Part shown: positions 6,888 through 61,514 of the stretch, one piece after another
How positions within the stretch are numbered: position 1 is the first letter of the stretch
Layout of the letters: the number at the start of each line of letters is the position of its first letter
Assembly (NCBI RefSeq): GCF_027887165.1
Contig: NC_077230.1
Coordinates: 289,078,949 to 289,142,948, forward strand
Reading direction: 5' to 3'
From: Monodelphis domestica
Lineage: Eukaryota
DNA: 64,000 bases
Notes under the pieces: generated by a model
The model's input: only the letters and a program-made list of their open reading frames with translations
What the model was told of the DNA's origin: nothing
The model's database searches: none
Made by a program: the position numbers and the translations under genes

Positions 6888-6916
6888 TATATTTTTATTC
6901 TTTTTTTTTTTAAATA

Positions 6917-10013: not shown

Positions 10014-10214
10014 GGGGAAGCTGGGTAGCTCAGTGGATTAAGAACCACCCTAGAGACAGGAGGTGCTAGGTTCAAGTGTGATCTCAGACATTTCCTAGCT
10101 GTGCCACCTTGAGCAAGTCACTTGACCCCCATTGCCTAGCCCTTACCACTCTTCTGCCTTGGAACCAATACAGAGTATTGATACTAAGACAGAAGGTCAG
10201 GGTTTAAAAAAAAT
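10014..10214 (+). mobile_element. Marsupial CORE-SINE (MAR1/SINE1-like).
   Basis: GGGGAAGCTGGGTAGCTCAGTGGATTAAGAACCACCCTAGAGACAGGAGGTGCTAGGTTCAAG...CAAGTCACTTGACCCCCATTGCCTAGCCCTTACCACTCTTCTGCCTTGGAACCAATACAGAGTATTGATACTAAGACAGAAGG plus an A-tail. It ends about 70 bp before the next exon acceptor. Confidence 0.85.
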
Positions 10215-13438: not shown

Positions 13439-14200
13439 TGTAAAGATAATTTTAGGGTTGTGACTTAAAATCTAAATTAATTGGTCACTAGGGGAAAATC
13501 CTAATAAAATACCACATCAGCCTGGAAATTTATGGTAATTTTAATTAATATAGAGGGAAGGATTTTAAGGAGAAAGAGGGAAGAGGGTATAGGATTTTTC
13601 CTGGCACAGGCCAGGTGGAGTTCAAGATCTCCGCCACTAAGTCTCTGAAGAAAATTAGAGGCTTCTAAGAGGATAAAGTTGGAAAGTGAAGGAGGAAAAC
13701 TCAGCAAGAAAACTCACCACCAAACTGGACAATAGCTGTAGCCACACCAAGATGCCGAAAGGCCCAGCACACTGCCACCAGCAAACTCTCCACCACCAAA
13801 GGCACCAGAGAGAGGAAGTGACGCGAAATATATAGACCTTTTACTCTTGTGTCCCCTCCTCTAAATTTTCAAGTCTACCAATCACATCAGATGCTTTTCT
13901 CCAGGACTGCCCATTCTTTAGTTCTCATCTTCCTCGATTAGATTGTCTTCTTTTGAGTTACTTAATACTTCTTTGTTAAGTTCACCTTTTGTTAATTACT
14001 TAACCTTTTTGTGAGATTAATTTACCTTTTATAGGTACATAACAACTTTTGGTAGTAAGATCTAAAAATAATTGTAGCTTAAAGTTCTAGCTTCACTATA
14101 AAGTAAGAGCTAAGTACCTTCATTGATCAATCAGGAGATTACAATTTTATCTTCACCATAAAGTAAGATTTAAGCAGAGTGGAGTAATTTAAAGTTCACA
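13439..14200 (-). mobile_element. Solo LTR-like element of about 760 bp (TG...CA termini). It is a near-copy (about 85% identity) of 58941-59706 in inverted orientation.
   Basis: Direct comparison of the reverse complement of 58941-59706 with 13439-14200 shows blocks such as ggcacaggccaggtggagttcaagatctccgccactaagtctctgaagaaaattagaggcttctaagaggataaagttggaaag matching ggcacaggtcaggcaggagaatcc.../ctctgaagaagattagaggcttctaagtggataaagttggaaaag. It starts with TGTGAAC and ends with ...TCTTTACA. Confidence 0.6.
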
Positions 14201-14203
14201 ATA

Positions 14204-14407
14204 GGGGGCAGCTGGGTAGCTCAGTGGATTGAGAGCCAGGCCTAGAGATGGGAGGTCCTAGGTTCAAATCTGGCCTCAGACACTTCCAGCTGTGTGACCC
14301 TGGGCAAGTCACTTGACCCCCCATTGCCTAGCCCATACCACTCTTCTGCCTTGGAGCCAATACACAGTATTGACTCCAAGATGGAAGGTAAGGGTTTAAA
14401 AAAAAAA
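14204..14407 (+). mobile_element. Marsupial CORE-SINE (MAR1/SINE1-like), full length, inserted directly next to the LTR copy.
   Basis: GGGGGCAGCTGGGTAGCTCAGTGGATTGAGAGCCAGGCCTAGAGATGGGAGGTCCTAGGTTCAAATCTGGCCTCAGACACTTCCAGCTGTGTGACCCTGGGCAAGTCACTTGACC... with an A-tail at 14395-14407. Confidence 0.9.
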
Positions 14408-14944: not shown

Positions 14945-17830
14945 CTTTTTTTTAATTATTTTTAAAAATATTTTTCCATGTTTACATGATTCATTTTATT
15001 TCCCTCTCCATCTCAAAGCTGAAAAGCAATTCCACTGGGTTACACAAATATTATCACTTATACTTATTTTCATATTATTCATCTCTACAGTAGAGCAATA
15101 TTTTAAAACCAAAACTCCAAATCATATACCCATATAAACAAGTGATGTTGTATATTTTTCTTTTGCGCTTCTACTCCCACAGTTCATTTTCTCGATGTGG
15201 ATAGCATTCTTTCTCTTAAGTCCCTCTGAATTGTCCTGGATACATTGCATTGTTACTAGTAGAGAAGTCCATTACAGTGGATCATTTCACAGTGTTTCAC
15301 TTTCTGTGTTAAAATGTTCTCTTGGTTCTGCTCATTTCACTGTCAGTTCATATAGAAATCCTCCAGATCATCATTCCTCACAGCACAATAGTATCCCATC
15401 ACCATTACATACTACAATTTGTTCAGCCATTCCCCAATCAAAGGACAACCCCTCATTTTCCAATTTTTTGCCACTACAAAGTGTGGCTATGAATACTTTT
15501 GTTCAGCCCTTTTTTATTTCCTTAGGATACAAACTCAGTAGTGGTATTGCTGGATCAAAGGGCAGGCATTCTTTTAAATTCCTTTGCGCATAGTTCCAAA
15601 TTGCCTTCCAGAATGACTGGATCAATTCACTACTCCACCAGCAACGTACTGGTGTCTCAATTTTGCCACATCCCTTCCAACATTTATTATTATTCTTTCC
15701 TGTCATGTTGGCTAATCTGCTAGGTGTGAGGTGGTACCTCAGGGTTGTTTTGATTTCCATTTCTCTATTCAGAAGGAATTTTCTCATGTAATTATTGATA
15801 GTTTTGATTTGTCTGAAAACTGTCTATTCATGTCACTTGACCATTTGCCAATTGGGGAATGGCTTGATTTCTTGTACATTTGACTTAGTTCCTTATAATT
15901 TTAAGAAATTAGACCTTTGTCAGAGATTTTTGTTATAAAAAAATTTTCCCCCCAGTTCCTTCTAATTTTGGTTGCATTGGTTTTGTTTGGACAAAACCTT
16001 TTTAATAGAATCAAAATTATTCGTTTTACATTTTATAATGTTCTCTAGCTCTTGCTTGGTCTTAAATTCCTTCTTTTCCCATAGATCTGACAGGTATACT
16101 ATTCTATGTTCATCCATTTCCCTCTATTTACCCATTTTGAATTTATCTTGGTATATAGGGTATGAGACATTGATCTAAACCTAATTTTCCCCATATTGTT
16201 TTCTAATTTTCCCAGCAGTTTCTGTCAAAGAGTGAGTTCTTGTCCCTAAAGTTGGGGTCTTTGGATTTATTTGAACACTAGCTTGCTGAGGTTACTTACC
16301 CCAGTCTATTCCATCAATCCTCCCTTGTCTCTTAGCTAGTACCATATTGTTTTGATGACCACTGCTTTATAGTACAATTTAAGATCTGGTACTGCTAGTC
16401 CCCCATCCTTCCCTTTTTTTTTTTCATTTTTTCCCTTGACATTTTTTTTTAACCCTTACCTTCCATCTTGGAATCAATACTGTGTATTGGTTCCAAGGCA
16501 GAAGAGTGGTAAAGGCTGGGCAATAGGGGTTAAGTGATTTACCCAGGGTCACACAGCTGGGAAGTGTCTTGAGGCCAAATTTGAACCCAGGACCTCCAAT
16601 CTCTAGATCTGGCTCTCAATCCACTGAGCTACCCAGCTGCCTCCCTCCCTTGATATTCTTGACCAACAATGAACTTTGTAAATACCTGGGTTTATCTTGG
16701 AAAATAGATTCCCAAATATATTGTCTAGATTGATTTCAAATGGAGTTTCTCTTTCTAACTCTTGCTGCAGAGTTTTGTTGGAAATATATGGGTTTGTTTT
16801 ATATCCTGCAATTTTGCTAAAGTTATTGATTTCCACTAGCTTTTTAGTTGATTTTCTAGGGTTCTTTAGGTATACCATCATATCGTCTGCAAAAAGTTTA
16901 GTTTCCTCATTGCCAACTTTGATACCTTCAATTTCTTTTCTCTAATTGCTACTGATAGTGTTTCTAGAACAATATTAAATAGTAGTGGTGATAATGGGCA
17001 TCCTTGTTTGACTCCTGATCTTATTGGGAAGGCTTCTAACTTATCACCATTGCAGCTGAAACTTGCTAATGATTTTAAATAAATACTGCTTATTATTTTG
17101 AGGAAAGGCCCTTTTATAGGAATAAACACTTTTTAGTGTTTTCAATAGGAATGGGTGGTGTATTTTGTCAGAGGCCTTTTCTGTATCTATTGAGATAATC
17201 ATGTGATTTCTGTTAGTTTGTTGTTGATATGGTCAATGATGCAGATGGTTTTCCTAATATTAAACCATCCTTGCAGTCCTGGTATAAATCCCACCTGGTC
17301 ATAGTGAATAATCCTTATGATGACTTGCTATAGTCTCTTTAGTAGTATTTTATCCAAGATTTTTGCATCTATGTAATTTAAGGAGATTGATTGGTCTATA
17401 ATTTTCTTTCTATGTTTTTGGTCTACCTGGCTTGGGAATTAGTACCATATTTGTATCAAAAAAATTTTTGGTAAGACTTCTTTGCTTATTTTGTCAAATA
17501 GTTTGGGATTAGTTGTTATTTAAATATTTGACAGAATTCATTTGTGAATCCATCTGGCCCTGGGGATTTTTTCTTAGGGAATTCCATGTTAACTTGTTCA
17601 ATTTCTTTTTCTGATATGTCTATTTCCTCTTTTGTTAACCTAGGGAATTTATATTTTTGTAAATATTCATCCATTTCACTGGATTGCCATACTTAGTCAT
17701 ATAATTGGACAAAATAGCTCTTAATAATTGCCTTAATTTCCTCTTCATTAGAGATGAGATTCCTCTTTTCAATTATAATACTATTCATTTGATTCTTTTT
17801 TTTTAATGATTAACCAATACTTTTATTTGT
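14945..17830 (-). mobile_element. L1 (LINE-1) element, 5'-truncated. Its 3' end (a poly-T on the + strand) is at about 14945. It is interrupted by a nested SINE at 16442-16644.
   Basis: Minus ORFs give the L1 ORF2 C-terminus at 15503-15787 (LRYHLTPSRLANMTGKNNNKCWKGCGK...PFDPAIPLLSLYPKEI) and the ORF2 RT at 16878-17129 ([28 protein letters not shown]). A T-rich tail lies at 14941-14985. Confidence 0.8.
16442..16644 (-). mobile_element. Marsupial CORE-SINE nested inside the L1.
   Basis: ttttttttt-aacccttaccttccatcttggaatcaatactgtgtattggttccaaggcagaagagtggtaaaggctgggcaataggggttaagtgatttacccagggtcacacagctgggaagtgtcttgaggccaaatttgaacccaggacctcc...ccactgagctacccagctgcctcc. Confidence 0.85.
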
Positions 17831-19194: not shown

Positions 19195-19392
19195 GGGGCA
19201 GCTGGATGGCTTAGTGGAATAAGAGCTAGGCCTAGAGATGGGAGGTCCTAGGTTCAAATCTGACCTCAGACACTTCCCAGATGTGTGACCCTGGGCAAGT
19301 CACTTGACCCCCATTGCCTAGCCCTTACCACTCTTCTGCCTTGGAACCAATACATAGTATTGATTCTAAGACTAAAAGAGTAAGACTTTTTG
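19195..19392 (+). mobile_element. Marsupial CORE-SINE (MAR1/SINE1-like) about 35 bp from the exon 16 donor.
   Basis: GGGGCAGCTGGATGGCTTAGTGGAATAAGAGCTAGGCCTAGAGATGGGAGGTCCTAGGTTCAAATCTGACCTCAGACACTTCC...GTGTGACCCTGGGCAAGTCACTTGACC. Confidence 0.85.
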
Positions 19393-23000: not shown

Positions 23001-23234
23001 AGTTTTCATATTCATTCTTTACTAAGTTATATGGAAATTCTAATATATATCAGAGGATAGTAGATTAGGAGCCACTGTACAAATAGCATATTGATTTCAA
23101 TAAGCCATTTAAAGTTTCTTATCCTTGTGGGAACAAATGGAAAGAGAAAGCAGAGCCAGATAATAGAATGGTTGGGTGAATTCACCAGGGGTTCTTAACC
23201 TCAAGATTGTGAATTTTTTAAAAAAATATTCTTT

Positions 23235-23440
23235 TTTTATAAAATAACCCTTACCTTTTGTCTTGGAATCAATACTGTGTATTGGTTCCAAGACAGAAGA
23301 GTGGTAAGGGCTAGGCAATGGAGGGGTCAAGTGACTTGCCCAGGGTCACACGGCTGGGAAGTGTCTGAGAGCAGATTTGAACCTGGGACCTCCCGTCTCT
23401 AGGCCTAGCTCTCAATCCACTGAGCTACCCAGCTGCCCCT
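23235..23440 (-). mobile_element. Marsupial CORE-SINE.
   Basis: aaataacccttaccttttgtcttggaatcaatactgtgtattggttccaagacagaagagtggtaagggctaggcaatggagg...gggtcacacggctgggaagtgtctgagagcagatttgaacctgggacctcc...ccactgagctacccagctgcccc. Confidence 0.85.
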
Positions 23441-26565: not shown

Positions 26566-26752
26566 TTTTTTTTTCCAAATACCTTTACCTTCTGTCTTAA
26601 AATCAATACTGTGTATGGGTTCCAAGGCAGAAGAGTGGCTAGTCAATGGGAATTAAGTAACTTGCCCAGAATCACACAGCTAGGAAGTGTCTGAGGCCAG
26701 ATTTGAACTGAGAACTTCCTGTCTCTAGGCCTGGCTCTCAATCCACTAAACC
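26566..26752 (-). mobile_element. Marsupial CORE-SINE, an older and more diverged copy.
   Basis: accttaccttctgtcttaaaatcaatactgtgtatgggttccaaggcagaagagtggctagtcaatgggaattaagtaacttgcccagaatcacacagctaggaagtgtctgaggccagatttgaactgagaacttcc. Confidence 0.8.
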
Positions 26753-26934
26753 CCCTCAAAGGTCAGTCTACTACTGCTTTCCCCAAATCTTTGAACAAGC
26801 TACCACTGACAACTATAGCAGTCTGTTAACAGAGAAATATTTGAAGTAAATATAGTAATTCACTCTCATTTTTCTTCAACAGATGGACAGAGATTCAGAC
26901 TTTTAAGAAAACTGTAATTTTCATAAAGTCTTAC

Positions 26935-27036
26935 CTTTCCATCAGGATGACTGATCTCTCCATGAATTTCTTCTTCTTGTAGTTTAGAATCAGGAGCAGG
27001 GCATATCAATGGTTCAAATATTTCACTGGATATCAC
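26935..27036 (-). CDS. CENPJ: CENPJ exon 13, encoding VISSEIFEPLICPAPDSKLQEEEIHGEISHPDGK.
   Basis: The acceptor tttttttttttaAG is at + 27037-27038 and the donor GTAAGAC at + 26934-26928. The 102 nt make 34 codons. The motif EEEI.GEISHPDGK|VEKV matches CPAP. Confidence 0.9.
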
Positions 27037-28924: not shown

Positions 28925-30957
28925 CCATTCCCTTACCCCACCTATTCTTTCTCTTATTCCCATCTATCTTCTTCCTGTTCCTCCAAAATCCTACTCTGGA
29001 ATTGCCCAATCCTTCCACTGTGCTCCCTGGGATACCTGTTGCATAATTCAACTTCCTTTAACCTTAAGCTTTTTCTTTCTCTTCCATCTTCTGGAATTTA
29101 CAGGCACCCAGCTGTCTCTTGATGGTACTGCATCTCTGGCCATACTTTCCAACACACACTGTGCTTTTTCTCATTTGTTACGGTGGGACAGCTAGAATAC
29201 TCATTGCCATTGCTACTTTCAGACTTTACAACCAATGATTGGCAACTCCTCCTCTGCAGTGTACACTATCCATCTTCAGAATCAAATATAAAATCCTGTT
29301 TGGCATTCAAAGTCCTTCATAACCTCCCCTCCCCTTTCCAGTCTTATACTTACACTTATCACTCCACCCCATGTACTCTGTGATCCAATGACCCTGGCCT
29401 TCTTGTAGTTCCTCCTCTCCCAATCCTATGCATTTTCACTAGCTGTCTCTCATGCACGGAATGCTCTCCTTCCCTCCTCACTTGTGCTTTCTGGCTTCCC
29501 TGGCTTCTTTCAAATCCAGCTAAATTCTTACCTTCGAAAGAATGCCTTTCCCAATCTTCCTTGAACTTTAAAAAGTTTTCTACTCCTTTAGACTGCAATT
29601 TCCTTAAGGGCAGAGCATGTCTTTTGTCTTTCTTTGTATTTCACACATTAGCACAATAGTGTTACTTAATATTTACTGAATTCAAATCCTAGTAGAGTAT
29701 GGTGCCTGGCACACTGTGTTCCTTTCTACCCCCAAGTCCTGCCAATCTCCTGAGAGATTTCACCATATCTTCTGATGTTCCCTTAACTCCCTAGTTCTTC
29801 AAAATGGTCAGCTCCCTAACCCAATTCTACCACTGTATCCCTCCCACACAAAGATATGGTCACATGTTCATTCTTCCTATCATCCATTAATGTTCTATTT
29901 CTACAGTGATGAACTTTATCAGAATCTTTTGTCATTCCATCTTTCCTTATCACCAGTCATATCTAGCAAAACCTCAACCTTGGATGACACTCCCCTTCTG
30001 CCTTTGCTACTTACTATCCACACACTACTGAATAGAGCTGGAAGAAATCAAAAAACACTATGCAGCTGACTGGGTCCACTACAAATTTATGTTCTTTACT
30101 TTCAATGGTTCCTTCCTAGTAGCAAGGCAATCATTCCAGTCTTAGTACACTCTACCCAATTTGCCACAATCTTCCCATCAGCACACCCTTCCCCATGCCT
30201 TTTCAGGAGACAACCTTGCCTCATATATATTTCACTGAAAAAAACAGCCATTTGCTGTTACCTCAAAAATCTGTTTTTGGCATTTAAGGTGATTCTCCAC
30301 CCCACCTCACCCTTCCTAACTTTCCAGTGTTTTCATATTTTGCTTTCTCCACTTCTATTCCCACATTCTACAGTTTGGTGAGTCTGGCTTACCCGATGTT
30401 CCTCAAATAAGGCACTCCATCTCTCATCTCTGCCCTTTGTACAGAGGTATCCCCTTACTTGGAATGCTTTCCCTCATCTCTGCTTCTTGACAGCCCTAGC
30501 TTCTTTCAAGACTTAGCTCAAAGGTCACCTTCTTAAGGGAGGCCTTTTCAGTCACCCCAGTCACTTAAGTCTTTCTAAAATTACTATCATGTTGTTTTTA
30601 CACACTTATTGTGTATGTAGGCATTTATTCCTTCCCCATTAGATGTAAGCTCCTTAAATTTCCTTAAAAATTTATTTCTTGAAGCAGCTAGTAGCACAGT
30701 GGATAAAGTACCAGGCTTCCAGTCAGGAGGTCCTGAGTTCAAATTTGACCTCAGATACTTCCGAGTTGTGAGACCTTGGACAAGTCACCTAACCCCAATT
30801 GCCTAGCCCTTGCTATTCCTCTGTCTTAAGAGTCTTTACTAAGACAGAAGTGTCCCCCACCCCACCACCTGCAAAAAAAAAAAAGTACTTATTTCTTTCC
30901 TATTAGTAAGTTCCTTAAAGCCAGGAACAATTCTCTGTATTTTTGCCTTGCCTCAGT
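28925..30957. repeat. Tandem duplication unit 1 (2,033 bp).
   Basis: Sequence from 28925 onward is identical to 30958 onward at an offset of 2032 (for example, 29161-29220 = 31193-31252 and 30661-30722 = 32693-32754, base for base). The ORF track shows identical ORFs at 28827/30889, 29183/31215 and 29359/31391. Confidence 0.9.
30682..30885 (+). mobile_element. Marsupial CORE-SINE inside duplication unit 1. An identical copy lies at 32714-32917 in unit 2.
   Basis: AAGCAGCTAGTAGCACAGTGGATAAAGTACCAGGCTTCCAGTCAGGAGGTCCTGAGTTCAAATTTGACCTCAGATACTTCC...CAAGTCACCTAACCCCAATTGCCTAGCCCTTGC. Confidence 0.8.
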
Positions 30958-32989
30958 ACTTCCCTTACCCCACCTATTCTTTCTCTTATTCCCATCTATC
31001 TTCTTCCTGTTCCTCCAAAATCCTACTCTGGAATTGCCCAATCCTTCCACTGTGCTCCCTGGGATACCTGTTGCATAATTCAACTTCCTTTAACCTTAAG
31101 CTTTTTCTTTCTCTTCCATCTTCTGGAATTTACAGGCACCCAGCTGTCTCTTGATGGTACTGCATCTCTGGCCATACTTTCCAACACACACTGTGCTTTT
31201 TCTCATTTGTTACGGTGGGACAGCTAGAATACTCATTGCCATTGCTACTTTCAGACTTTACAACCAATGATTGGCAACTCCTCCTCTGCAGTGTACACTA
31301 TCCATCTTCAGAATCAAATATAAAATCCTGTTTGGCATTCAAAGTCCTTCATAACCTCCCCTCCCCTTTCCAGTCTTATACTTACACTTATCACTCCACC
31401 CCATGTACTCTGTGATCCAATGACCCTGGCCTTCTTGTAGTTCCTCCTCTCCCAATCCTATGCATTTTCACTAGCTGTCTCTCATGCACGGAATGCTCTC
31501 CTTCCCTCCTCACTTGTGCTTTCTGGCTTCCCTGGCTTCTTTCAAATCCAGCTAAATTCTTACCTTCGAAAGAATGCCTTTCCCAATCTTCCTTGAACTT
31601 TAAAAAGTTTTCTACTCCTTTAGACTGCAATTTCCTTAAGGGCAGAGCATGTCTTTTGTCTTTCTTTGTATTTCACACATTAGCACAATAGTGTTACTTA
31701 ATATTTACTGAATTCAAATCCTAGTAGAGTATGGTGCCTGGCACACTGTGTTCCTTTCTACCCCCAAGTCCTGCCAATCTCCTGAGAGATTTCACCATAT
31801 CTTCTGATGTTCCCTTAACTCCCTAGTTCTTCAAAATGGTCAGCTCCCTAACCCAATTCTACCACTGTATCCCTCCCACACAAAGATATGGTCACATGTT
31901 CATTCTTCCTATCATCCATTAATGTTCTATTTCTACAGTGATGAACTTTATCAGAATCTTTTGTCATTCCATCTTTCCTTATCACCAGTCATATCTAGCA
32001 AAACCTCAACCTTGGATGACACTCCCCTTCTGCCTTTGCTACTTACTATCCACACACTACTGAATAGAGCTGGAAGAAATCAAAAAACACTATGCAGCTG
32101 ACTGGGTCCACTACAAATTTATGTTCTTTACTTTCAATGGTTCCTTCCTAGTAGCAAGGCAATCATTCCAGTCTTAGTACACTCTACCCAATTTGCCACA
32201 ATCTTCCCATCAGCACACCCTTCCCCATGCCTTTTCAGGAGACAACCTTGCCTCATATATATTTCACTGAAAAAAACAGCCATTTGCTGTTACCTCAAAA
32301 ATCTGTTTTTGGCATTTAAGGTGATTCTCCACCCCACCTCACCCTTCCTAACTTTCCAGTGTTTTCATATTTTGCTTTCTCCACTTCTATTCCCACATTC
32401 TACAGTTTGGTGAGTCTGGCTTACCCGATGTTCCTCAAATAAGGCACTCCATCTCTCATCTCTGCCCTTTGTACAGAGGTATCCCCTTACTTGGAATGCT
32501 TTCCCTCATCTCTGCTTCTTGACAGCCCTAGCTTCTTTCAAGACTTAGCTCAAAGGTCACCTTCTTAAGGGAGGCCTTTTCAGTCACCCCAGTCACTTAA
32601 GTCTTTCTAAAATTACTATCATGTTGTTTTTACACACTTATTGTGTATGTAGGCATTTATTCCTTCCCCATTAGATGTAAGCTCCTTAAATTTCCTTAAA
32701 AATTTATTTCTTGAAGCAGCTAGTAGCACAGTGGATAAAGTACCAGGCTTCCAGTCAGGAGGTCCTGAGTTCAAATTTGACCTCAGATACTTCCGAGTTG
32801 TGAGACCTTGGACAAGTCACCTAACCCCAATTGCCTAGCCCTTGCTATTCCTCTGTCTTAAGAGTCTTTACTAAGACAGAAGTGTCCCCCACCCCACCAC
32901 CTGCAAAAAAAAAAAAGTACTTATTTCTTTCCTATTAGTAAGTTCCTTAAAGCCAGGAACAATTCTCTGTATTTTTGCCTTGCCTCAGT
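30958..32989. repeat. Tandem duplication unit 2 (2,032 bp), apparently 100% identical to unit 1.
   Basis: Same as unit 1. The junction reads ...gccttgcctcagtactt|cccttaccccacctattc. The distal end reads ...cctcagtactt|ggcacaaggcacaatactt, where the duplication stops. Confidence 0.9.
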
Positions 32990-33218
32990 ACTTGGCACAA
33001 GGCACAATACTTAGAACACAGTAAGAACCCCCCAAAATGCTTGATTGATTAAAGCTAATTTTTAAAAAGCTTTAGCAAAACCTTTTATTCACTCATCTAT
33101 CTAATCACTTATCTCTTTATCTACTTTTCTTTTCAAGGCAAGTTAGTAAGGAGTTGATTCTAACACCAATTAATGTATATTTACAAGCAATAAAATATTA
33201 AGTTATTACAAAATTCAC

Positions 33219-33283
33219 CTGTCCTTTATCTGAATTACTTAGATCATGAACTGGTGCTGACTTTGGTCTCCGAGGCAGATTTC
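33219..33283 (-). CDS. CENPJ: CENPJ exon 12, encoding (G)NLPRRPKSAPVHDLSNSDKGQ.
   Basis: The acceptor tttgttaaaaacAG is at + 33284-33285 and the donor GTGAAT at + 33218-33213. The 65 nt break down as 2 + 21 codons. It matches human ...[22 protein letters not shown]. Confidence 0.88.
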
Positions 33284-34394
33284 CTGTTTTTAACAAACAA
33301 AAAAGAGTTACATTAAAAATAAAGTTGGTAACATTAAAATGTCTCCTTTCAACTAAAATAGACTCATATCAGATCCATGTACTTATTTTTTAAGTCTTAA
33401 AACTAAATATACTTTCTCAGTAGTTTAGTATGTTGGCTTACACATTTTTTCAACTTTGGCATCTGAAATAGAATCATAGGTCACATTTAATCCTCTCATT
33501 TTAAATTAAAGAAACTGAGGCCCTCGAGAGGTAGCCAACAACAAAGAATATTTCTATAGTACAAGTGTATGATGATTTAGTTTTGAGAACATCTTCTTGA
33601 GAACTCAGCTAATTTAGAGAATTAGCAAAAATTCCTCTTACCTTTGTATAGCATATAATAAAAGTTATTGGGCTAATAGCTTATATAGCACAAAAATATA
33701 GCACATACAACTGAAGGCAACAAAACAACTTGGAAAAGAGAGGTCCCATAACACTAAGTACAAACTTTCTAATGAAAACCTATCCTACATGCTGCCTCTC
33801 TATGGCTGTTTGGTTATGTCTACCATGATCTTCCACGTGAATTATGCAATTTTACTTTTAAAAACGATTAGTTTATAGATTCTGTCCCAGTTATGATGAG
33901 GTACCCTCTGTTGTAACAACATCCAGACTGCAGCAAATGAGACCTAGAAATTAGTTCAAGGAATAATTAAGGCTTCTTTCAAAACATTTAAGCAATAGGT
34001 CTTTCACAATTTAGCTGTTACACTATTCTTCCCCACCTCTCCTGCAATGTCATAGGAATCCCCCATGCTTTAAAGAGGGATGTTTATTTCAGGCTTAAAC
34101 ACAGACTATAAGAAAAACTTGGTGACTTTCCATCATCTCATTTTTTCAGATACTATGATAGAATCAAGATGACAGAACTGTAGTGCTAAAAGAGGCCTTA
34201 GTGATCATTTAGTTCAAATCCCATCATTTTACGGATAAGAAACTGAAGCCTAAATGGTAAAGCACACAAATTTCCAGAGGTGGTATCAGCTTAATTAAAT
34301 AACCTTAACTAAAATTTTCTAATCCTATTTTTTCTTTACAAATTACTACTCATAAGAAATACTTCTGCTATTATTATCTTAATTTTTTTTTTTT

Positions 34395-53327: not shown

Positions 53328-54413
53328 CTTATGAAGAAAACACAAGCAAAATTAATATTTTTGTGAAAAATTAGCTTTTCATTTTACTACTCTACTATCC
53401 TGTCTCTTCCACTCATCTACATCTCTCAAAATGAAATAACAAAGTAACATTTTAATAAAAATAAGCTAAATGCAATAATGTTAGTATTTTGAACACAAAG
53501 TATCTTCTACATTATTTTAACTAAGGTCATTTGCTGGTACTCACGTTCAGGAAAAATAAGCATTATTCAATAATGAGGTTCATTCCTTTTCCAGCAGCAC
53601 ATCCTTGAAAATGCATGTAGTTCTGTATAATCTAAATTATTTCCCAAAGCAGTAAAGAATGCTCCACTTATACACAAAAAATTACCAATACTAAAATTCT
53701 GAGGATCCACCCTTATCACAACCACTTCCCATGCTACTGGGATCCCCACTCTTCTCCCAATTCACCTTCCATATGCATTTGGAAGTCAGTGAGAGGTGTT
53801 CTAAACCTAAAAGTTTACAACTTTTACCAACATTTACACATGTGCCCTAACCACTTTATGATCCATGCTATTCATAGAATCTTAAATTTGGAAGGGACTT
53901 TTAGAGCCCAAATAGCCCAACCTCATTGCTAATGCAACAAGACATTATTGGACAGCTCTGTTCATTAGGAAGTTTTTCCTTACTTAGAGCAAGAATCTGT
54001 TTTCCTACAATTTTTATCCATTAGTTTTAGTTGCCCTCCAGAAAAACACAAATTCAAACAATTCTGATATTGCTTCATGTAGCTAAGTCACTATTATGCT
54101 ATTATATCTCATCTAAATCTTCTCCAAGCTAAGCATTACTATGTTACTAAACTGTTCTAACTAAACACAGCATGGTTTCCAGACCTCCCACTTTCCTGGT
54201 TACCTTCTTCTAGACATTCTACAACATACTACAGTTATTTACCTCCTTTTTTCAAGACTGTCTAGAATTTGGTATAGCTTATAACATAAAAACTATCAGA
54301 ACACAACTCTTGCAACCTGCCATAACTGAACAAAAAACACCCCCAGATCCTATTTCATATCCATCTCACTATGACCCCTCCACCATAAGTCTATATTTTT
54401 ACTGCCAGGGTAT

Positions 54414-54745
54414 TGTGAACTTTAAAATTACTCCACCCTACTTAGATGTAATTTAGGGGAAGATAAAATTGTAATCTGATTGAACAATGAAGGTACTGAG
54501 TTCTCACCTTATAGTGAAGCTAGAACTACATTTTTCTGTTCAATCAATTTGATGTTTCCTCCAACTGAGCCATGTTGACTCTTCTTGCATCTCTTCCCAA
54601 ACCTCTCCATTTTCAGGGAAAAGACTTTGAAAGGAGGTTAATCGAGTAAGTTTAAGTATGTCTCTATTATTTTTAACTTGAGAATGTAACTATGTCAATT
54701 CAAGTCTCAACCTTAGTAACAGTCAAAATCCACTCTCTTGTGAAT
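54414..54745 (+). repeat. Composite repeat a+c. Part a (54414-54527) equals the first 115 bp of the LTR at 58941-59056. Part c (54528-54745) equals 59955-60172, the sequence lying just beyond CENPJ exon 3.
   Basis: gtattgtgaactttaaaattactccaccctacttagatgtaatttaggggaagataaaattgtaatctgattgaacaatgaaggtactgagttctcaccttatagtgaagctagaact matches 58938-59056. ...acatttttctgttcaatcaatttgatgtttcctccaa...cttcttgcatctcttcccaaacctc...gtaagtttaagtatgtctctattatttttaacttgagaatgtaactatgtcaattcaagtctcaaccttagtaacagtcaaaatcca matches 59955-60172. Confidence 0.7.
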
Positions 54746-54869
54746 AACCATGTTATAAAGAGACTCTGTAGTTTCCAACATACATACGATTATTTCTTCT
54801 ATTCCTAGCACAGCTACATACTTTACAGTAATGGACTTGTGCTCAGCCATTTTTTAAATACCCATACAT

Positions 54870-57590
54870 GAGAACTCCAGGCATATCTTTGCTTTCATTT
54901 GGAAGGGCTACCATATACATGGAGTAATCTGCCACAGGGTTATGTGGAAAGCCTGAGTTTATTTGCACAAATTTTGAGCCAAGACACAGATAATATAACA
55001 TTTTAAAATAGCAAATTAATCAAATACATAGATGATATACTCTTGACTTCAACAGACGCAGAAGCATGTCAGGACGATAATAAACACCTTCTTTTGGAAT
55101 TGCACAAAAGAGGTCATAAGATCTTAAAGGATAAAATTCAGTGGTGTCTCCCTAAAGTAGAATATTTGGGATTCATCCTGACTATAGGTGCCCACTCTAT
55201 TTCTCCCAAAGAAATTGAAAATATTCAAAATTTAAGCACTCCTACCACTAAGAAACAGTTGAGAGCAATTTTAGGAGCAACAAGGTTTTGTAGACGATGG
55301 ATTCCTTGCTATGGGGAAATTACTAAACCCCTTATACCACTAACGAGGGATTCGGTCCCTGAACCCCTCAAATTAGAGCCAGAACACTTGTCAGCTCTAT
55401 CAGATCTAAAACAGGATATCCTGTCTGCCCCTGCTCTAGGTATCCCAGATTGCAACAAGCCATTTACTTTGTATGTACATGAGCAAAGAGGGGTAGCTTC
55501 AGGTGTTTTAACTCAGACTTTGGGGCTATCTCAGAGCCCAATTGCTTATTATTCTGCCCAGCTGGACCTAGTAGCATCAGGAACACCACCATGTCTTAGA
55601 GTAGCTGACGTACTGACTTACTGTGTCAGTACTGTGTACAGTACTGACGTACTGACTTACTAGTGACAAAAACTGTTGATCTAATATTAGGATGCCCATT
55701 AACAATTATGTGCCCACATGAGGTAGAAGCATTGTTGCTAAGGCATAGAACACAGGCATTCTCGGATCAGCAAATTACAAGGTATGAAATAACCTTGTTA
55801 AATAGCAAAAACATTACCTTGAAATGCTGTACAACCCTTAACCCTGCCACCTTGCTTCCAGATTTACCAACTTCAGGAGAACCATTACACAATTGTGAAA
55901 CACTAGTGTCCATGGCAGAAAAGCCTCAAGATAATCTCTTGAACACTCCCTTAGACAATCCAGATCTGGTCTTATTTACTGATGGTTCCTCTTTTATGAG
56001 AGATGGCATACGTTACACTGGAGCTGCTGTAGTCACAGAATTTGCCACTGAGTGATCAGCTTCACTGCCCTCTAATATTAGCGCTCAAGGGGCAGAACTC
56101 ATACCTCTGCAACATGCCTGTATAATTGCCAAGGATATAAAGGCAAGAATTTATACGGATTCTAGATATGTTTTTGGCAACTGTCACTCAGTCGGGATGC
56201 TATGGCTCCAGAGAGGATTTTTAACCTCAGCTGGAAAATCTATAGCTAATGCAGAAATTATTAATGAAGTTCTTTCTGCTCTCCAGGTGTCTGAAGCCCT
56301 AGATGTAGTTCATTGCTCTGCCCATACAGGTGGCACTGACCTTGTCTCTAGGAGAAATGATTGAGCAGATGCAGCTGCAAAGCTAACAGCCATAGAAGGC
56401 CTAAATTAATTTTAACATTAACAACCACTGATGACTTAAATTTATCACTTTCCTATAATGAAAAGGAAGTGGAAAATGAAAGCAAAAATTCAAAGCAAAA
56501 CAGATTAATGGAGTTTGGATGTCATCTGAAGGAAAACCCCTGCTCCCTAGAAGTTTCTATCACCAAATTTGCCAATCTATTCATAAAAATGGTCACTTTG
56601 GCACCCAGGGCATCGTGGATTCTGAAGAGAGTATGGATAGCCCCTGGTATAACTACTATAGCTAAAGTGTGTACAGCCTGCTCTACCTGCCAAACATATA
56701 ACCAACATGCCTTTCATGGCAAAGCCTTTGGTGGGCATCCTCTGGCTTACACACCTTTTGAGCACTAACAGATAGATTTCATAACAATGCCAAAGGCTAG
56801 ATATTATAAATTTTGTCTAGTCATAGTAAATCAACTGACCAGATGGCCGAAAGCATTTCCTGTGACTAGAGCCACAGCAGCTTTTGTTACTAAGGTGCTT
56901 TTAAAAGAAATTATTCCTCACTTTGGCCTGTCCATATTGATTCAGATAGAGGAAGTCATTTTACTGATTCTGTCCTAAATCAAATATATTCTTGCTTGGG
57001 GATAACTCCTAAATTCCATGTTCCAGATCATCCCCAGAGCTCAGGCCAAGTTGAAAGAATGATCAGAGAACTTAAAACTATGATTGGCAAATTATGCACT
57101 GAGACACATTTAAAATGGCCTGAAATTCTCCCTCTGGCCCTATTTTCTCTTAGAAGCAGGCATAGAGGAGACCTACACATCTCACCATTTGAGATGCTTT
57201 TTGGACATCTACCTATATAGGCTAAGCCTTTCTCCCCTGCATATACATCACTATTATGGGGAGACACTACTATTGCTTCCTATATACAGGAATTATAGGA
57301 TAAACTGCACGAACTCCATGAATCCAGAGCTGCAGTACAAGCCGGACCACTAGACTTTTCTCTCTTTATGACTTAAACCCAGAAGACACGGTGTATATTA
57401 AGAATTTCCAGCATACTGGAGCAACTCAGCCTTCCTGGGAAGGACCATTCCAAATATTGTTAACTACTCCAACATCTATAAAGGTTGGAGAGGACTCTTG
57501 GAATCATTGCTCACATGTGAAGAGAGCATCTTCTGTTGAGACTGATTGACTGCATCCTATCACATGCATTGGAGATAATAATCCATAGAC
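54870..57590 (+). mobile_element. Endogenous retrovirus internal fragment. It carries the 3' half of pol (RT from the YIDD motif onward, connection/RNase H, and an integrase with an HHCC zinc finger and a DDE core). The 5' end is truncated in mid-RT, the ORFs are degenerate, and gag/pro are absent. It is antisense to CENPJ.
   Basis: LPQGYVESPSLFAQ...IKYIDDILLTSTDAEACQDDNKHLL (54880-55100); FLGF...LGATRFCRRWIPCYGEITKPLIPLT...PFTLYVHEQRGVASGVLTQTLG (55043-55663); RNase H at VLFTDGSSFMRDGIRYTGAAVV (~55960-56040); IN at HFGTQGIVDSEESMDSPW...CQTYNQHAFHGKAFGGHP, then QIDFITMPKARYYKFCLVIVNQLTRWPKAFP...SDRGSHFTDS...PDHPQSSGQVERMIRELK (56550-57220); IN C-terminus GPFQILLTTPTSIKVGEDSWNHCSHVK (57430-57540). 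Confidence 0.8.
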
Positions 57591-57744
57591 AAGTGGATAC
57601 TGTTTTCAGGAACACATTGAATTCTTGATTTTTCCCCCTTATTTTTATTATTGCTTTTTTAAATTTTGATTAGAATATTTGATTTTTTCCCTTTTTTCTC
57701 ATTTCTTGTACTAAAGGTACATACAGTTAATATTATTTTTTTCT

Positions 57745-57790
57745 GCAGAATTATATGTTATATATATATATGTATATATATATATACCTG
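57745..57790. repeat. (TA)n/(TATG)n simple repeat.
   Basis: atatatatatatgtatatatatatatacc. Confidence 0.9.
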
Positions 57791-58940
57791 CTATAATATC
57801 AATGCATACCCAAAAAAGCTTTAAACTGTGGGAACCTGCCATTTATTGATAAAATGTTATGGGACTGTGATTAATGTTTGTGTCTGATTCTAGAAAATGG
57901 GATAAAAAACAAGGAGCACAGACTTAACCTGAAGAGTGCCAAAAAGAGCACACAGGAAAAACTAGTGTGAGACTCGAGGTTGCAATGCTTGACATATGTT
58001 AAGTCATAGGACTTTCTTGTATCTACACTCTTTGTGAAATACTCAGACAAGTACCAAAGTTTGATTATCATCCTGGCTCCCTATATCCCTGAGAATGACA
58101 AAAATCAGACCAGGGAATGACAATTCCCTATCAAAATAATAAAATTCTAGTTCTTTTTCTTCTTATAGTATGGCGACTTCCTGTAGTCTTGGCTGCAAAT
58201 GGGTAAGTGAAATATTACTGTATTCTGTCCTACAGACTTGTGAGATAGAAATTTATTGAACCCTAAAACAAGGGCCTATTATGAAATTATTCTTGCTTAC
58301 TCAACATTTTATATACATAGATTTTGGATTTTTTATTCTAATTTTGAATTTTTTTCTTTCTCCCAAAAGTTTAACTTTCTTCCATTTTTTTCTTTATATT
58401 TTTGTTTTTTTCTCTTCTTTTGATAATTGACTCATACAACTCTATAACTCAACATTGCATCTGAGCAGAACTAGATGTTTTTTAACACCCATTTCGGGGG
58501 GGGGGTTGTATTTTAATAAAAATCCAAGATTTTGAAATTTTGTTCGAGAAAGATCTTCAAGGAAGAAGCTTGCTAACTCCTAAATCCAGAGAATGAACTG
58601 TTGCAGAAAGATGCCAGAAAAACCTACACTACATCAAGAAGATCAAGAATGAACTTTGGGTGTGGTTGATTGAACTAAAGTTTGATTGAACATTTATTTG
58701 AATGTATACTCTTATGCCAAAAGGGGACTGCCCCCTAACTGGGTTTTGTCAATATGCCCAGCAAACATTGGTTTTTCTGTCTGTCTTTCTTCTATTTTGC
58801 TCTTCTATCTAACTATTGTAAAATTTCTATTAGAAATTGAATATTGTATACATCTGTAGTTAGAAGTACTTTAGGACTACAAGAGGATTATGTTAAATGA
58901 TCAATGGGGAGACTAGTCTCCCAATGATCATTGGGAGGAT

Positions 58941-59706
58941 TGTGAACTAAAATTACTCCACCCTACTTATACCGTACTTTAGGGGAAGATAAAGTTGTAA
59001 TCTCCTGATTGAACAATGAAAGTACTGAGTTCTCACCTTATAGTGAAGCTAGAACTTTAAGCTAAGTCTATTTTTAGGTCTCAATACAAAAAGGTGTTAA
59101 GTAACTATAAAGGTTAAATTAATCACAAAAAGGTCAAGTAACTAACAAAAGGTGAACTTAACAAAGAAGTGTTAAGTAACTCAAAAGATATAATCAAAGA
59201 AGATGAGAACTAAAAGTATGGGCAGTGCTGGAGAAAGCCTTTGATGTGATTGGTAGATGTGAAAATTTAGAGGAGCAGACACAAGGGTGAAAGATCTATA
59301 TATTTGGGATTTTCTGTCTCTCAAAACACTCTCTTTCCCTGTTGGCAGTAGAGTTAACTAAGAGCAGCATGCTGGCCTTTCGGCATCTTAGCATGGCTAC
59401 AACCTATTGTCCAGTTCGGTGGTGAGTTTCTGGCTGTATTTCCCTCCTTTACTTTTCCAACTTTATCCACTTAGAAGCCTCTAATCTTCTTCAGAGACCT
59501 AGAGGCGAGGATTTTAAAACTCCCCCTGGCACAGGTCAGGCAGGAGAATCCTATATCCTCTTCCCTTGTTCTCCTTAAATTCCCTCCCTCTATATTAATT
59601 AAATTACCATAAATTTCCAGACTGACTTGGGTATTTTATTTGGGATTTTTCCCGGCGACCAATTAACTCTAGATCTTTAAGTCACAACCCTAAAATTATC
59701 TTTACA
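58941..59706 (+). mobile_element. LTR (TG...CA) lying immediately 3' of the ERV pol fragment, most likely its 3' LTR. It belongs to the same family as the inverted solo copy at 13439-14200.
   Basis: It starts TGTGAACTAAAATTACTCCACCC and ends ...AAAATTATCTTTACA at 59706. About 85% identity to the reverse complement of 13439-14200 was seen by direct comparison. Confidence 0.65.
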
Positions 59707-59821
59707 GTCTCCATTTGTAAATATGAAAAAAGGCTGGTGACAACCAATTATCAAAACACTACAATGGAAAAAAAAATTCACGAACATAAAGCATTTTTGT
59801 AAAGTAAGGACTAAGTGTTAC

Positions 59822-59945
59822 CTGAGTGTGTCTGTTGCCCAGATACCATAGTCAGTAATTTCTCTTGCTCTTCCAGGAGCCTCTGAATCTGTTCTATTTG
59901 CTGCCTCTTCAGCTCCTCCTGCTTCTTCTGTTGGACTTCTCTGAG
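59822..59945 (-). CDS. CENPJ: CENPJ exon 3, encoding [41 protein letters not shown] plus 1 hanging nucleotide.
   Basis: The acceptor (purine-rich, weak) aaaaaaatgtatttgaaaAG is at + 59946-59947 and the donor GTAACA at + 59821-59816. The 124 nt break down as 41 codons + 1. It matches human [37 protein letters not shown]. Confidence 0.85.
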
Positions 59946-59954
59946 CTTTTCAAA

Positions 59955-60172
59955 TACATTTTTTTGTTCAATTAATTTTATGTTTCCTCCAATCGAACCC
60001 TGTTGACTCTTCTTGCATCTCTTCCCAAACCTCCCCATTCTTAGGGAAAAGACTTTATTTAAAAGGTTAATCAAGTAAGTTTAAGTATGCCTCTATTATT
60101 TTTAACTTGAGAATGTAACTATGTCAATTCAAGTCTCAACCTTAGTAACAGTCAAAATCCATTCTCTTGTTA
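59955..60172 (+). repeat. Repeat part c (second copy), beginning 10 bp beyond the exon 3 acceptor.
   Basis: acatttttttgttcaattaattttatgtttcctccaatcgaaccctgttgactcttcttgcatctcttcccaaacctcc...gtaagtttaagtatgcctctattatttttaacttgagaatgtaactatgtcaattcaagtctcaaccttagtaacagtcaaaatccattctcttgt matches 54528-54745. Confidence 0.7.
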
Positions 60173-61066
60173 TTAAATTGATCTAAGTACAGATGAAGTC
60201 ACTTATCTTTTAATTCTACATGACATAATACAATTTTTTGCCAATTTTTGCTTAGTTATTTAATGTCTTAAATTTTGTCTTATAAATTACAATTGTCTTA
60301 ACTCTCATTTATAAAATCATAGTGGTATTGCTCATTAGTTAAAAGGGACATTGGTGATAACTGAATCTAGTCCCTACATTTTGCAGATTAGGAAACCAGG
60401 GTCAAAAAGATGAAGTAATTTGCACATAAATGCTATAGATTTGTGTGAAACCCATACCCTATCCTTGGAATGAAGAACATGAATCTAGAATAATCAATCT
60501 GTACTATATGGGTAAGAAGTTTATAATCTTGTCCTGAACATCATCAGATTGTAATCATTTGAGCTACTGCTTTCAAGCTAGGCTGTCAAGATAATTGGGA
60601 AAGATCTAGTACCCCTTGGTACACTGACTCTAACAAATGAGAGTTTATCCCGAACATAAAGAGACAAAAGTAAAATGGCAACTGATGCATTATAAATTAC
60701 TATTTTTTTGGTAACAGTCATTTATATCTGCTCTGAAAAGATAGGGATTTTCTAATAGAGATCCTAATGAACTCAAAGCAAACTGAAGCATATATTTTTA
60801 GACATGGGTAATGTAGGAATTTGTTTTGCTTGACTTTCCTTATTTTTAAGAGATTTTGTTTTTTCTTTCTCAATGGATTGGGGTGGGAAGAGTGAGAGAA
60901 TTCAGAACTGAAAATAAAATAAAACTCAAAAAATAAGTAGGCAGTCACACTTTAAGTCTAATACTCTTTGTAGTTTTTTTTTTTTAAGACTTTTAAAATG
61001 GGAGGGGAGATTAATTTTAAAACTACATACATAAAACCTTCAAATCTGGCTAAATAATTTGTTTAC

Positions 61067-61514
61067 CTGCTCAAGTTTCTTGAAAAGTGGATCTCTATAA
61101 GCTGCTTCTTTGGAATCATTCACATCAGGTACATCAATTTTGGTATCTTCCCAGTGGCCCAAAGTATCTTTGCATGTCAGTGATTGTTGTGACTTCTTAG
61201 TGTGAGGAAAGACTGAATGTGTTTCATTTGTATCTGATTGCACTCTATATGGGCTTTTAGAACCCAAGATCTGTTCTTCTCGAAGTGAATCATCACTTAG
61301 AAAGCTACAGCTGTCTGAAAATTCTGTGCTTTTAACAATAAAACTGGAGGAAGTATTTGCATTTGACTGATTCTCTCTCCCTATTTCCAAATTAGGAAAT
61401 CCACGATTCAGTATCACACCAGCACGGGAAGGATTGGACATCCACTGAGCTAAAAAATTTTGCCCACTATTTAATTCTGAAGAAGTGGGCATCAGGAAAA
61501 TTGTCATCTGATCA
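61067..61514 (-). CDS. CENPJ: CENPJ exon 2, containing the start codon (ATG at 61507-61505). It encodes [43 protein letters not shown]...AAYRDPLFKKLEQ. The CDS is 61067-61507, with 7 nt of 5' UTR to a putative acceptor at 61515-61516.
   Basis: It coincides with the 155-aa minus ORF at 61040-61507. It matches the human CPAP N-terminus [36 protein letters not shown]...AYKDPLFKKLEQ. The donor caggtaaac has its GT at + 61066-61065. An in-frame TAG/TGA lies just upstream of the ATG. Confidence 0.85.

Follow-up and report, generated by a model that had tools for sequence, protein, structure and literature searches.

Intron 3 of CENPJ carries an old, broken provirus, which lost its front end and probably had the gap filled by a 214-base copy of nearby intron DNA. 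The junction between the two repeated segments discussed below, called a and c, is very probably a repair scar within this dead provirus, and it is very probably neutral. The neighbouring exon 3 looks undisturbed, and the scar is an ordinary, known kind of repair event with probably neutral consequences.

Two arrangements of the same pair of segments

The homology search was a self-BLAST of the window, which is the whole 64-kb stretch of DNA analysed here, and the limits of the units were then refined by base-level reading. The data showed that a and c are each present in an upstream copy (a-up, c-up) and a downstream copy (a-down, c-down). The matching stretches of a (54412–54527 versus 58939–59056) were 90.8% identical over 120 columns (E 3e-39 to 3e-41), and those of c (54524–54747 versus 59952–60176) were 90.3% identical over 227 columns (E 3e-83 to 3e-85). 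After refinement (Table 1), a-up corresponds to the first 116 bp of the downstream long terminal repeat (LTR), and c-up corresponds to c-down, whose near end and the CENPJ exon 3 acceptor are 10 bp apart. Upstream, a and c abut directly (GAAGCTAGAACT/ACATTTTT, the slash marking the junction), while downstream 650 bp of the LTR and 249 bp of other DNA (59707–59955) lie between them, and the 898 bp present there are missing from the upstream copy. This pairwise comparison, which the preliminary description had proposed, confirmed its observation that a and c are contiguous upstream and apart downstream, and its coordinates were right to within 1–2 bp. Self-BLAST of the window detected no similarity to the left of a or to the right of c, and base-level reading found no trace of the intervening parts, b and U, between a and c in the upstream copy. 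Hence, the two copies do not form a colinear block with homology across the whole unit, as would be expected of a segmental or tandem duplication.

TABLE 1. Positions in the window of the provirus, the CENPJ exon 3 region and a related solo LTR
Feature	Position	Strand	Remarks
Solo LTR, same family	13439–14202	minus	Past the CENPJ 3′ end; outgroup; 82% identical to the 3′ LTR over 786 columns
GTAT, candidate left 4-bp target site duplication (TSD)	54410–54413	plus	3/4 match to GTCT 59707–59710; chance about 5%, weak
a-up, 114-bp 5′ LTR stub (U3 start)	54414–54527	plus	Begins exactly at the LTR TG terminus
c-up, 214 bp in the deletion scar	54528–54741	plus	Probable copy of the CENPJ intron 2 3′ end; donor orientation kept
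Degraded pol, gammaretrovirus-like ERV	54740–57546	plus	RT, RNase H, integrase core, MLV integrase C-terminal domain; several frameshifts and stops
Non-coding rest of the provirus interior	57547–58932	plus	Short low-complexity open segments only
Polypurine-tract-like GGGAGGA(T)	58933–58940	plus	Adjoins the 3′ LTR; read directly; GGGAGGA is 58933–58939
Complete 3′ LTR, 766 bp, TGTGAAC...TTTACA	58941–59706	plus	First 116 bp are a-down
First 115 nt of CENPJ intron 3 (gene sense)	59707–59821	minus	Exon 3 donor to provirus; plus-strand start GTCT
CENPJ coding exon 3, 124 nt	59822–59945	minus	tblastn, 73% identity to pangolin CENPJ residues 149–190
Last 10 nt of intron 2 including AG acceptor	59946–59955	minus	Outside c
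c-down, native 3′-terminal ~215 nt of intron 2	59956–60170	minus	Branch-point and pyrimidine-tract zone; inferred donor of c-up

Anatomy of the provirus

The region from 54414 to 59706 is best read as one gammaretrovirus-like provirus on the plus strand, antisense in CENPJ intron 3. Endogenous retroviruses (ERVs) that are tolerated in introns are usually antisense. The reading as a single provirus is suggested by the fact that a-up starts at the TG terminus, groups with the 3′ LTR, and has flanks matching at three of four positions, with GTCT at 59707–59710 as the candidate right TSD. Two direct LTRs with TG...CA ends surround the interior, the 5′ LTR only as a 114-bp stub, and both self-BLAST and base-level reading bore out the earlier proposal that the 766-bp element is an ERV 3′ LTR and that a is its first ~115 bp. 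The interior contains pol with a gamma-type integrase C-terminus, in which the Pfam matches RVT_1, RT_RNaseH_2, RNase_H, rve and MLVIN_C follow in the correct order on the plus strand. It is closed by a near-palindrome (58896–58937, detected as an inverted self-match), and a polypurine tract precedes the 3′ LTR. On the other hand, neither a primer-binding site (PBS) after the 5′ LTR nor gag, protease or env was recognised, env not being recognisable in 57547–58932, where there was no coding signal, and protease having no ORF; the element is a deleted, defective provirus.

The position of the loss coincides with c-up. The pol region is 78–81% identical to Monodelphis domestica reverse transcriptase (RT) proteins, and its tblastn homology begins at 54740, which corresponds to V106 of one of them (P0122, 78% identical). 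Hence, RT enters at about residue 106 (Pfam RVT_1 position ~52) directly after c-up, and neither residues 1–105 of P0122 nor the protease and RT N-terminus of P0146 had a tblastn match anywhere in the window. The parts missing at the scar are the rest of the 5′ LTR, the leader, gag, protease and the RT N-terminus, and c-up is located exactly there. The preliminary description had missed both the identity of a-up as 5′ LTR of this same provirus and the fact that the loss of gag and protease falls exactly at c-up. The element resembles the class I (gamma-like) ERVs of Monodelphis domestica in its pol identity, MLV-type integrase C-terminus and TG...CA ends, and possibly in a 4-bp TSD, but this copy is without PBS, gag, pro and env. 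It also resembles LTR retroelements internally deleted by illegitimate recombination in its truncated 5′ LTR, in the loss of gag-pro, and probably in that of env; however, such deletions are mostly simple, while this one carries a host-intron patch.

CENPJ exon 3 and its splice context

The identification of the coding exon as CENPJ exon 3 was corroborated by agreement between the tblastn match to pangolin CENPJ and the splice signals, which are the acceptor AG/CTCAG (AG 59946–47) and the donor CAG/GTAACA. The acceptor polypyrimidine tract is purine-rich and weak (aaaaaaatgtatttgaaaAG), and the next AG upstream of the acceptor is ~45 nt away. The tract had been described as poor and partly contained in c, and this is indeed the case, as only the last 10 intron bases are outside c. 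No Rfam match, Pfam match or unusual RNA fold was found for c-down, and self-BLAST of the window found no second copy of 59707–59821. The branch-point and pyrimidine zone of exon 3, which is conserved and in frame, lies in c-down, and this makes a derived origin of c-down unlikely. Exon 3, its acceptor and c-down probably represent the native arrangement, to which an ERV insertion 115 bp away was added. The suggestion that the exon neighbourhood itself was rearranged found no indication in its favour, the rearranged copy being the upstream one, between the 5′ LTR stub and the truncated pol. Since the best CENPJ protein match in the collections searched was eutherian (55–56% identical) and no marsupial orthologous locus was among them, the empty pre-integration site and the polarity from c-down to c-up are only inferred.

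Divergence of the copies

The a pair differs by 5 substitutions in 112 sites and three indels (divergence 0.045, CI 0.015–0.101), and the c pair by 14 substitutions in 212 sites and two indels (0.066, CI 0.037–0.108). The difference between a and c is not significant (Fisher p=0.62), and the similar divergences are compatible with an event soon after integration. A copy made later than the integration should be equally or less diverged, and yet the point estimate for c is slightly higher than that for the LTR pair, although not significantly. With the solo LTR as reference (87.9–89.4%), a-up is sister to the 3′ LTR (95.5%), and the sites unique to the solo LTR number 10 versus 1 and 3 in this three-way comparison.

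Junctions and the proposed repair event

At the left junction, between a and c, there is a 1-bp overlap (T, within an imperfect AAnT), and at the right junction, between c and RT, a 2-bp overlap GT (54740–54741), when the conserved codon context AVNNHV in P0122 and P0146 is taken into account. Overlaps as short as 1–2 bp would often arise by chance. LTR homology plays no part in either junction, which speaks against the earlier view of the rearrangement as LTR-mediated. When the junctions were read directly, no TSD, poly(A) or endonuclease target motif was seen at c-up or c-down. As is characteristic of filler DNA, both junctions are microhomology or blunt joins, and an identifiable donor, c-down, is still in place. 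Reverse transcription always regenerates two full LTRs. A 5′ LTR that breaks off at position 115 and continues into foreign DNA must therefore have arisen by a DNA event after integration. The clean joins with 1–2-bp overlaps, no TSD and no poly(A) are best read as the signature of a patch made by end-joining or template switching.

In the sequence of events that we propose, the provirus would have integrated antisense in CENPJ intron 3, 115 bp from the exon 3 donor, and a double-strand break or replication template switch would later have occurred inside it. The region from LTR position ~115 to RT residue ~105, which by our estimate may have been roughly 3 kb and comprised the remaining 5′ LTR, the primer-binding site, leader, gag, protease and RT N-terminus, would have been lost, and the gap could have been sealed in a single step by a 214-bp templated copy of c-down, located 5.4 kb off in cis beyond exon 3. 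Most likely, the left end ...AGAACT-3′ would have primed on c-down at ...CAAAT/ACATT, 214 nt would have been copied heading away from the exon, and the new 3′ end ...CTCTTGT would have joined the right end at GTGAATAAC via the GT overlap.

Similar products have been described in other systems. In class 2 templated sequence insertions the inserted stretch is a copy of a distant donor that stays in place, TSD and poly(A) are lacking, the microhomology is short and recipient sequence is lost (PMC5110952), and a comparable system is the filler DNA of mitochondrial origin (numts) at junctions of double-strand-break repair (PMC2567098). The scar in CENPJ shares the retained donor, the lack of TSD and poly(A), the short microhomology and the recipient loss; it differs in that the donor has the same orientation and lies in cis at a distance of just 5.4 kb, and in the ~3-kb deletion of the provirus. 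In SD-MMEJ and Pol-theta templated insertions, a 3′ end is extended from a short match along a near template, dissociates and is joined to the other end by microhomology (PMC2943611). The scar is alike in that local sequence is directly repeated where a deletion was joined, but SD-MMEJ typically inserts a few to tens of bases, from templates within tens of bases of the break, while the patch observed here is 214 bp from 5.4 kb. The size and origin of the patch count against the proposed reading, since Pol-theta templated insertions are typically shorter than ~200 bp and copied from nearer than 5 kb, and so does the imperfect TSD. The patch is closer in scale to FoSTeS/MMBIR events than to SD-MMEJ; FoSTeS/MMBIR is replication template switching.

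Other routes to the same junction

Also counting against a single event is the fact that a two-step route would give an identical end product. In the repair of a break in the provirus, the 5′ LTR could have invaded the 3′ LTR, copied LTR, exon 3 and c, and been end-joined to RT, or LTR–LTR recombination could have come after a tandem duplication; either way a second a-b-U-c block would then have undergone an 898-bp deletion. The LTR homology would offer an easy start for copying, and selection would favour the loss of a frame-shifting second exon 3 (124 nt), which could explain why the deletion ends 10 bp past the exon acceptor. However, at least two independent events are needed, and the intermediate would have carried a full extra exon 3 with both splice sites in intron 3 of an essential gene, where its persistence is unlikely; moreover, there is neither a trace of b or U between a and c nor homology past a or c. 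The segmental duplication with an 898-bp deletion offered in the preliminary description thus keeps some standing as a route to the observed product, but its two events, harmful intermediate and missing flanking homology make it unlikely.

The a/c adjacency could also be a coincidence, if c were a low- or medium-copy interspersed repeat that had arrived twice independently, in the provirus and beside exon 3. Each copy of c is ~214 bp, which is the size of a SINE, and the divergence between them is nominally a little higher than that between the LTRs. Against this, the window contains two copies of c, both beside this provirus, compared with ~10 of a true SINE, and c had no A/B-box-like, tRNA-like or Rfam match. 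Within the 64 kb it thus shows neither the many dispersed copies nor the insertion hallmarks (TSD, poly(A)) of an interspersed repeat. A metagenome scan with a 27-mer of c, which is weakly informative, gave no match. Additionally, c-up is located exactly at the junction of a multi-kb deletion instead of interrupting continuous ERV sequence, and we estimate the probability of a second copy within 6 kb at ~0.3–3% for 1000–10,000 copies in a ~3.5-Gb genome. Two independent arrivals are hence quite improbable, and the copy number agrees with the earlier interpretation of the adjacency as a local rearrangement rather than chance.

A reversed polarity, in which c-up, of ERV or other origin, would be older and c-down would have been copied into intron 2 by the exon 3 acceptor, would account for the poor pyrimidine tract, and the tract is indeed weak. 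It is nevertheless very improbable, because c-up is unlike the expected ERV sequence (no match to RT or protease N-terminal sequences) and a third, unseen source would be needed, because 214 bp inserted 10 nt before the acceptor would shift the branch point of a constitutive exon, and because the sequence just past c-down provides no better pyrimidine tract. Retroviral transduction is hardly credible: viral transcription runs through the 3′ LTR towards c, and a read-through transcript of the provirus at this site would include c before re-integration of the recombinant, but a host insert between two complete LTRs was not found, the 5′ LTR being truncated exactly at the c junction; such an LTR, cut at 115 and fused to c, could not be produced by reverse transcription, which rebuilds full LTRs, and re-integration only 5 kb from the donor would be a further coincidence.

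A possible RNA template and relevance for annotation

Within the preferred reading, a local patch in the provirus, the template could have been RNA, namely the excised or nascent CENPJ intron 2, although we regard this as distinctly unlikely. In gene sense only 10 nt lie between the end of c and the 3′ end of intron 2, and the left break end ...AGAACT-3′ points in the direction needed for priming cDNA synthesis at the 3′ end of the intron 2 RNA. An RNA template would explain a copy boundary so near the splice acceptor, which we estimate at ~1% for a random local donor segment. If true, this would be a germline-fixed case of break repair templated by intron RNA. The limit of the patch 10 nt from the intron 3′ end bears on the distinction between DNA- and RNA-templated patches.

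The locus provides a clean worked example in which an exon between two repeat halves resolves into a provirus, an internal deletion and local filler DNA, while the splice context of the essential exon itself is probably untouched. It could be a useful marker, as a natural and datable (about 5–7% divergence) 214-bp patch from 5.4 kb off in the mammalian germline. For CENPJ biology the only practical point concerns annotation and splicing predictors. Intron 3 contains a decoy copy of the exon 3 acceptor region, and an intact, antisense-pointing LTR promoter is located 115 bp from exon 3. More speculatively, the gene-sense junction places the copied branch-point and acceptor region of exon 3 before AG/TTCTAGCTTCACTATAAG/GTGAGA (54508–54525), which could form a potential 18-nt poison pseudo-exon with an in-frame TAA.

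The upstream repeat junction lies inside a defective provirus

The preliminary description had pointed out two repeat relations around CENPJ exon 3, in which parts a and c are contiguous upstream and separated downstream. Both were borne out by self-BLAST and base-level alignment. Part a aligned between 54412–54527 and 58939–59056 (90.8% over 120 columns, E about 1e-39 to 1e-41), and part c between 54524–54747 and 59952–60176 (90.3% over 227 columns, E about 1e-83 to 1e-85), which is far above chance in each case. The limits of the units were refined by base-level reading and affine-gap alignment (see table). In the upstream copy a directly abuts c, GAAGCTAGAACT/ACATTTTT, and in the downstream copy the other 650 bp of the LTR and 249 bp containing the exon lie between them. 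The repeat relations held, and their earlier interpretation was partly supported. Exon 3 is not the rearrangement site, and the upstream a–c junction is best read as a scar left by repair within a defective provirus.

Coordinates of the repeat parts, CENPJ exon 3 and examples of the SINE family
Feature	Position	Strand	Basis
a-up (upstream part a)	54414–54527		base-level reading, affine-gap alignment
c-up (upstream part c)	54528–54741		base-level reading, affine-gap alignment
LTR (3′ LTR, begins with downstream part a)	58941–59706	plus	base-level reading, affine-gap alignment
c-down (downstream part c)	59956–60170		base-level reading, affine-gap alignment
CENPJ exon 3	59822–59945	minus	tblastn; translation of 37 residues
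SINE copies (examples)	6687–6900, 10005–10213, 14204–14405, 16442–16644, 19195–19371, 23231–23439, 26567–26747

On the plus strand, the region from 54740 to 57546 consists of a degraded gamma-type pol with RVT_1 (from profile position ~52), RT_RNaseH_2, RNase_H, rve and MLVIN_C domains in this order. Its 78–81% identity to Monodelphis domestica RT proteins is in keeping with an opossum-like host. The tblastn matches with Monodelphis proteins begin at 54740, which corresponds to V106 of the RT protein P0122 (...DLRAVNNHVIKR...), and tblastn over the whole window gave no match to the RT N-terminus or to the protease located upstream in the protease/RT protein P0146. There was no coding signal in 57547–58932, and a polypurine tract, GGGAGGA, adjoins the LTR. 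Immediately 5′ of this tract, at 58896–58937, is a near-perfect palindrome of ~40 nt containing GGGAGACTAGTCTCCC and CAATGATCATTG. The provirus runs antisense to CENPJ and occupies 5.3 kb of the roughly 6.5-kb intron 3.

The LTR ends, TG...CA, were set by comparison with a solo LTR of the same family at 13439–14202 (minus strand), and the first base of a-up coincides with the TG terminus. Among the three copies, a-up was 95.5% identical to the 3′ LTR and 89.4% to the solo LTR, the 3′ LTR was 87.9% identical to the solo LTR, and 10 sites were unique to the solo copy, one to a-up and three to the 3′ LTR. The sequences flanking the provirus, GTAT and GTCT, match at 3/4 positions, which gives a weak hint of a 4-bp target-site duplication. 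Taken together, the TG start, the LTR identities, the unique sites and the flanking tetranucleotides indicate that a-up and the 3′ LTR belong to one provirus, a-up being the stub of its 5′ LTR; the 3′ LTR is located 115 bp from the donor of exon 3.

Probable templated repair of a deletion within the provirus

The provirus lacks LTR positions ~116–766, the PBS and leader, gag, protease and about 105 RT residues, and c-up is located exactly in this gap. Reverse transcription always rebuilds complete LTRs, hence a truncated LTR joined to foreign DNA reflects a DNA-level, post-integration event, and classical retroviral transduction is excluded for the same reason. RNA splicing was also rejected as the source of the a–c junction, as GT...AG is absent at the matching donor-copy boundaries on both strands.

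At the left junction, LTR ...GAACT/TTAAGC and c-down ...CAAAT/ACATTT gave the product ...GAACT/ACATTT, with a 1-bp overlap, while at the right junction c-down ...CTCTTGT/TATT and ERV GTGAATAAC gave CTCTTGTGAATAAC, with a 2-bp overlap. Base-by-base reading of the a–c and c–RT junctions revealed no target-site duplication, poly(A) or extra bases. These features are the hallmark of a patch copied from a template where ends were joined or a template switch took place, and the same hallmark has been described for SD-MMEJ (PMC2943611) and for class 2 templated sequence insertions (PMC5110952). The left break end would prime on c-down, synthesis would proceed away from the exon, and the right end would then be captured; the relative orientation of c-up and c-down fits this course. 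The scar would be a further case of an already known type of event.

The same end product would result from a two-step route, in which LTR-primed copying of the LTR, exon and c was followed by an 898-bp deletion, although this requires two events and passes through an intermediate that would carry a second exon 3 and be harmful. In a further rival to a patch copied from c-down, the polarity is the opposite and c-down stems from c-up; this requires a third source for c-up as well as an insertion at a distance of 10 nt from the acceptor of a constitutive exon.

Substitutions were found at 5/112 positions in the a pair (0.045, CI 0.015–0.101), with three indels, and at 14/212 positions in the c pair (0.066, CI 0.037–0.108), with two indels. 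The two divergences were statistically indistinguishable (Fisher p=0.62), so the patch is not demonstrably younger than the integration. Both would be on the order of 10–15 million years old at commonly assumed mammalian neutral rates, which is our own assumption. The c-pair differences are uneven, with about 11/14 substitutions and both indels in the exon-proximal half and only three substitutions in the distal ~107 bp, which could be noise or could stem from partial gene conversion or from rates that vary locally.

The nature of part c

Sensitive BLAST detected only two copies of c in the window. A SINE family of ~200 bp, which served as the in-window yardstick for a high-copy repeat, is present in the same 64 kb at about 10 sites over 6687–32859 with 78–92% identity. 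Hence, c is not a common repeat within the window. Independent insertions of a repeat are disfavored by this copy number, by the absence of insertion hallmarks from c and by the placement of c-up on a multi-kilobase deletion junction. An exact scan of JGI metagenome contigs with a 27-mer from c gave no matches, which says nothing on copy number.

The possibility that c is a stable or structured RNA, for instance a snoRNA of the intron, was rejected, because no Rfam match was found at E<=1 in 54200–60500 apart from mir-297, and the fold was not unusual (z-score −0.88). The mir-297 match, at 57745–57801, scores 23.9 bits, below the gathering score of 90 (E about 1); it lies within a simple repeat of the provirus that is rich in TA/TG and is almost certainly due to chance. 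A coding or ERV-derived origin was rejected as well: the c ORFs had no Pfam match, and no tblastn match was obtained to Monodelphis protease/RT upstream of V106.

CENPJ exon 3 and its acceptor

The CENPJ exons were mapped by tblastn with pangolin and gorilla CENPJ proteins, and all coding exons, from exon 2 (61055–61501) to the stop at about 18111, are on the minus strand. A protein search with the 540-aa CENPJ exon returned nothing above 56% identity, all matches being eutherian or avian; the top identity in the protein collection, 55–56%, was to eutherians. The splice signals of exon 3 are an AG at 59946–47 and the donor CAG/GTAACA. With exon 2 ending ...KKLEQ in phase 0, reading frame and homology together fix where the acceptor lies. 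The pyrimidine tract, remarked on earlier as poor, was indeed read as weak. All but the last 10 bases of the intron 2 3′ end belong to c-down, and the closest AG upstream of the acceptor is about 45 nt away, which means that the branch point must be inside c-down. The ORF covering exon 3 and c has 89 aa.

The donor segment of the patch stops 10 nt short of the intron 2 3′ end. This may be chance, or it may reflect survivorship, since copies extending over the AG and the exon would be harmful; excised or nascent intron RNA has a low probability of having been the template.

In the gene sense (minus strand), the c-up/a junction at 54502–54527 sets a copy of the exon 3 branch-point and acceptor region before AG/TTCTAGCTTCACTATAAG/GTGAGA. 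Positions 54508–54525 may thereby form an 18-nt pseudo-exon, whose near-consensus donor comes from the antisense LTR. Its inclusion after exon 3 would give the reading G TT CTA GCT TCA CTA TAA, with an in-frame stop.

Other observations in the window

The intact 3′ LTR has a TATA-like TCTATATATTT at about 59296 and is oriented, on the strand antisense to CENPJ, toward exon 3, 115 bp away, and exon 2, across both of which it could drive antisense transcription. The solo LTR lies beyond the CENPJ 3′ end, inserted directly beside a SINE (14204–14405), with flanks CTAT/ATAT and 82% identity to the 3′ LTR. A perfect direct tandem duplication of 2,034 bp (28928–30961 and 30960–32993, spanning 28928–32993, 100% identical) sits in the CENPJ intron flanked by the exon pieces at about 33216–33284 and 26917–27024, and is either a very recent event or an assembly artefact. 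Downstream of CENPJ, a LINE at 85–3233 (minus strand) has long ORFs in three pieces (195–833, 1108–1791 and 2100–3233) with endonuclease- and reverse-transcriptase-like sequence, and looks like a fairly young copy.
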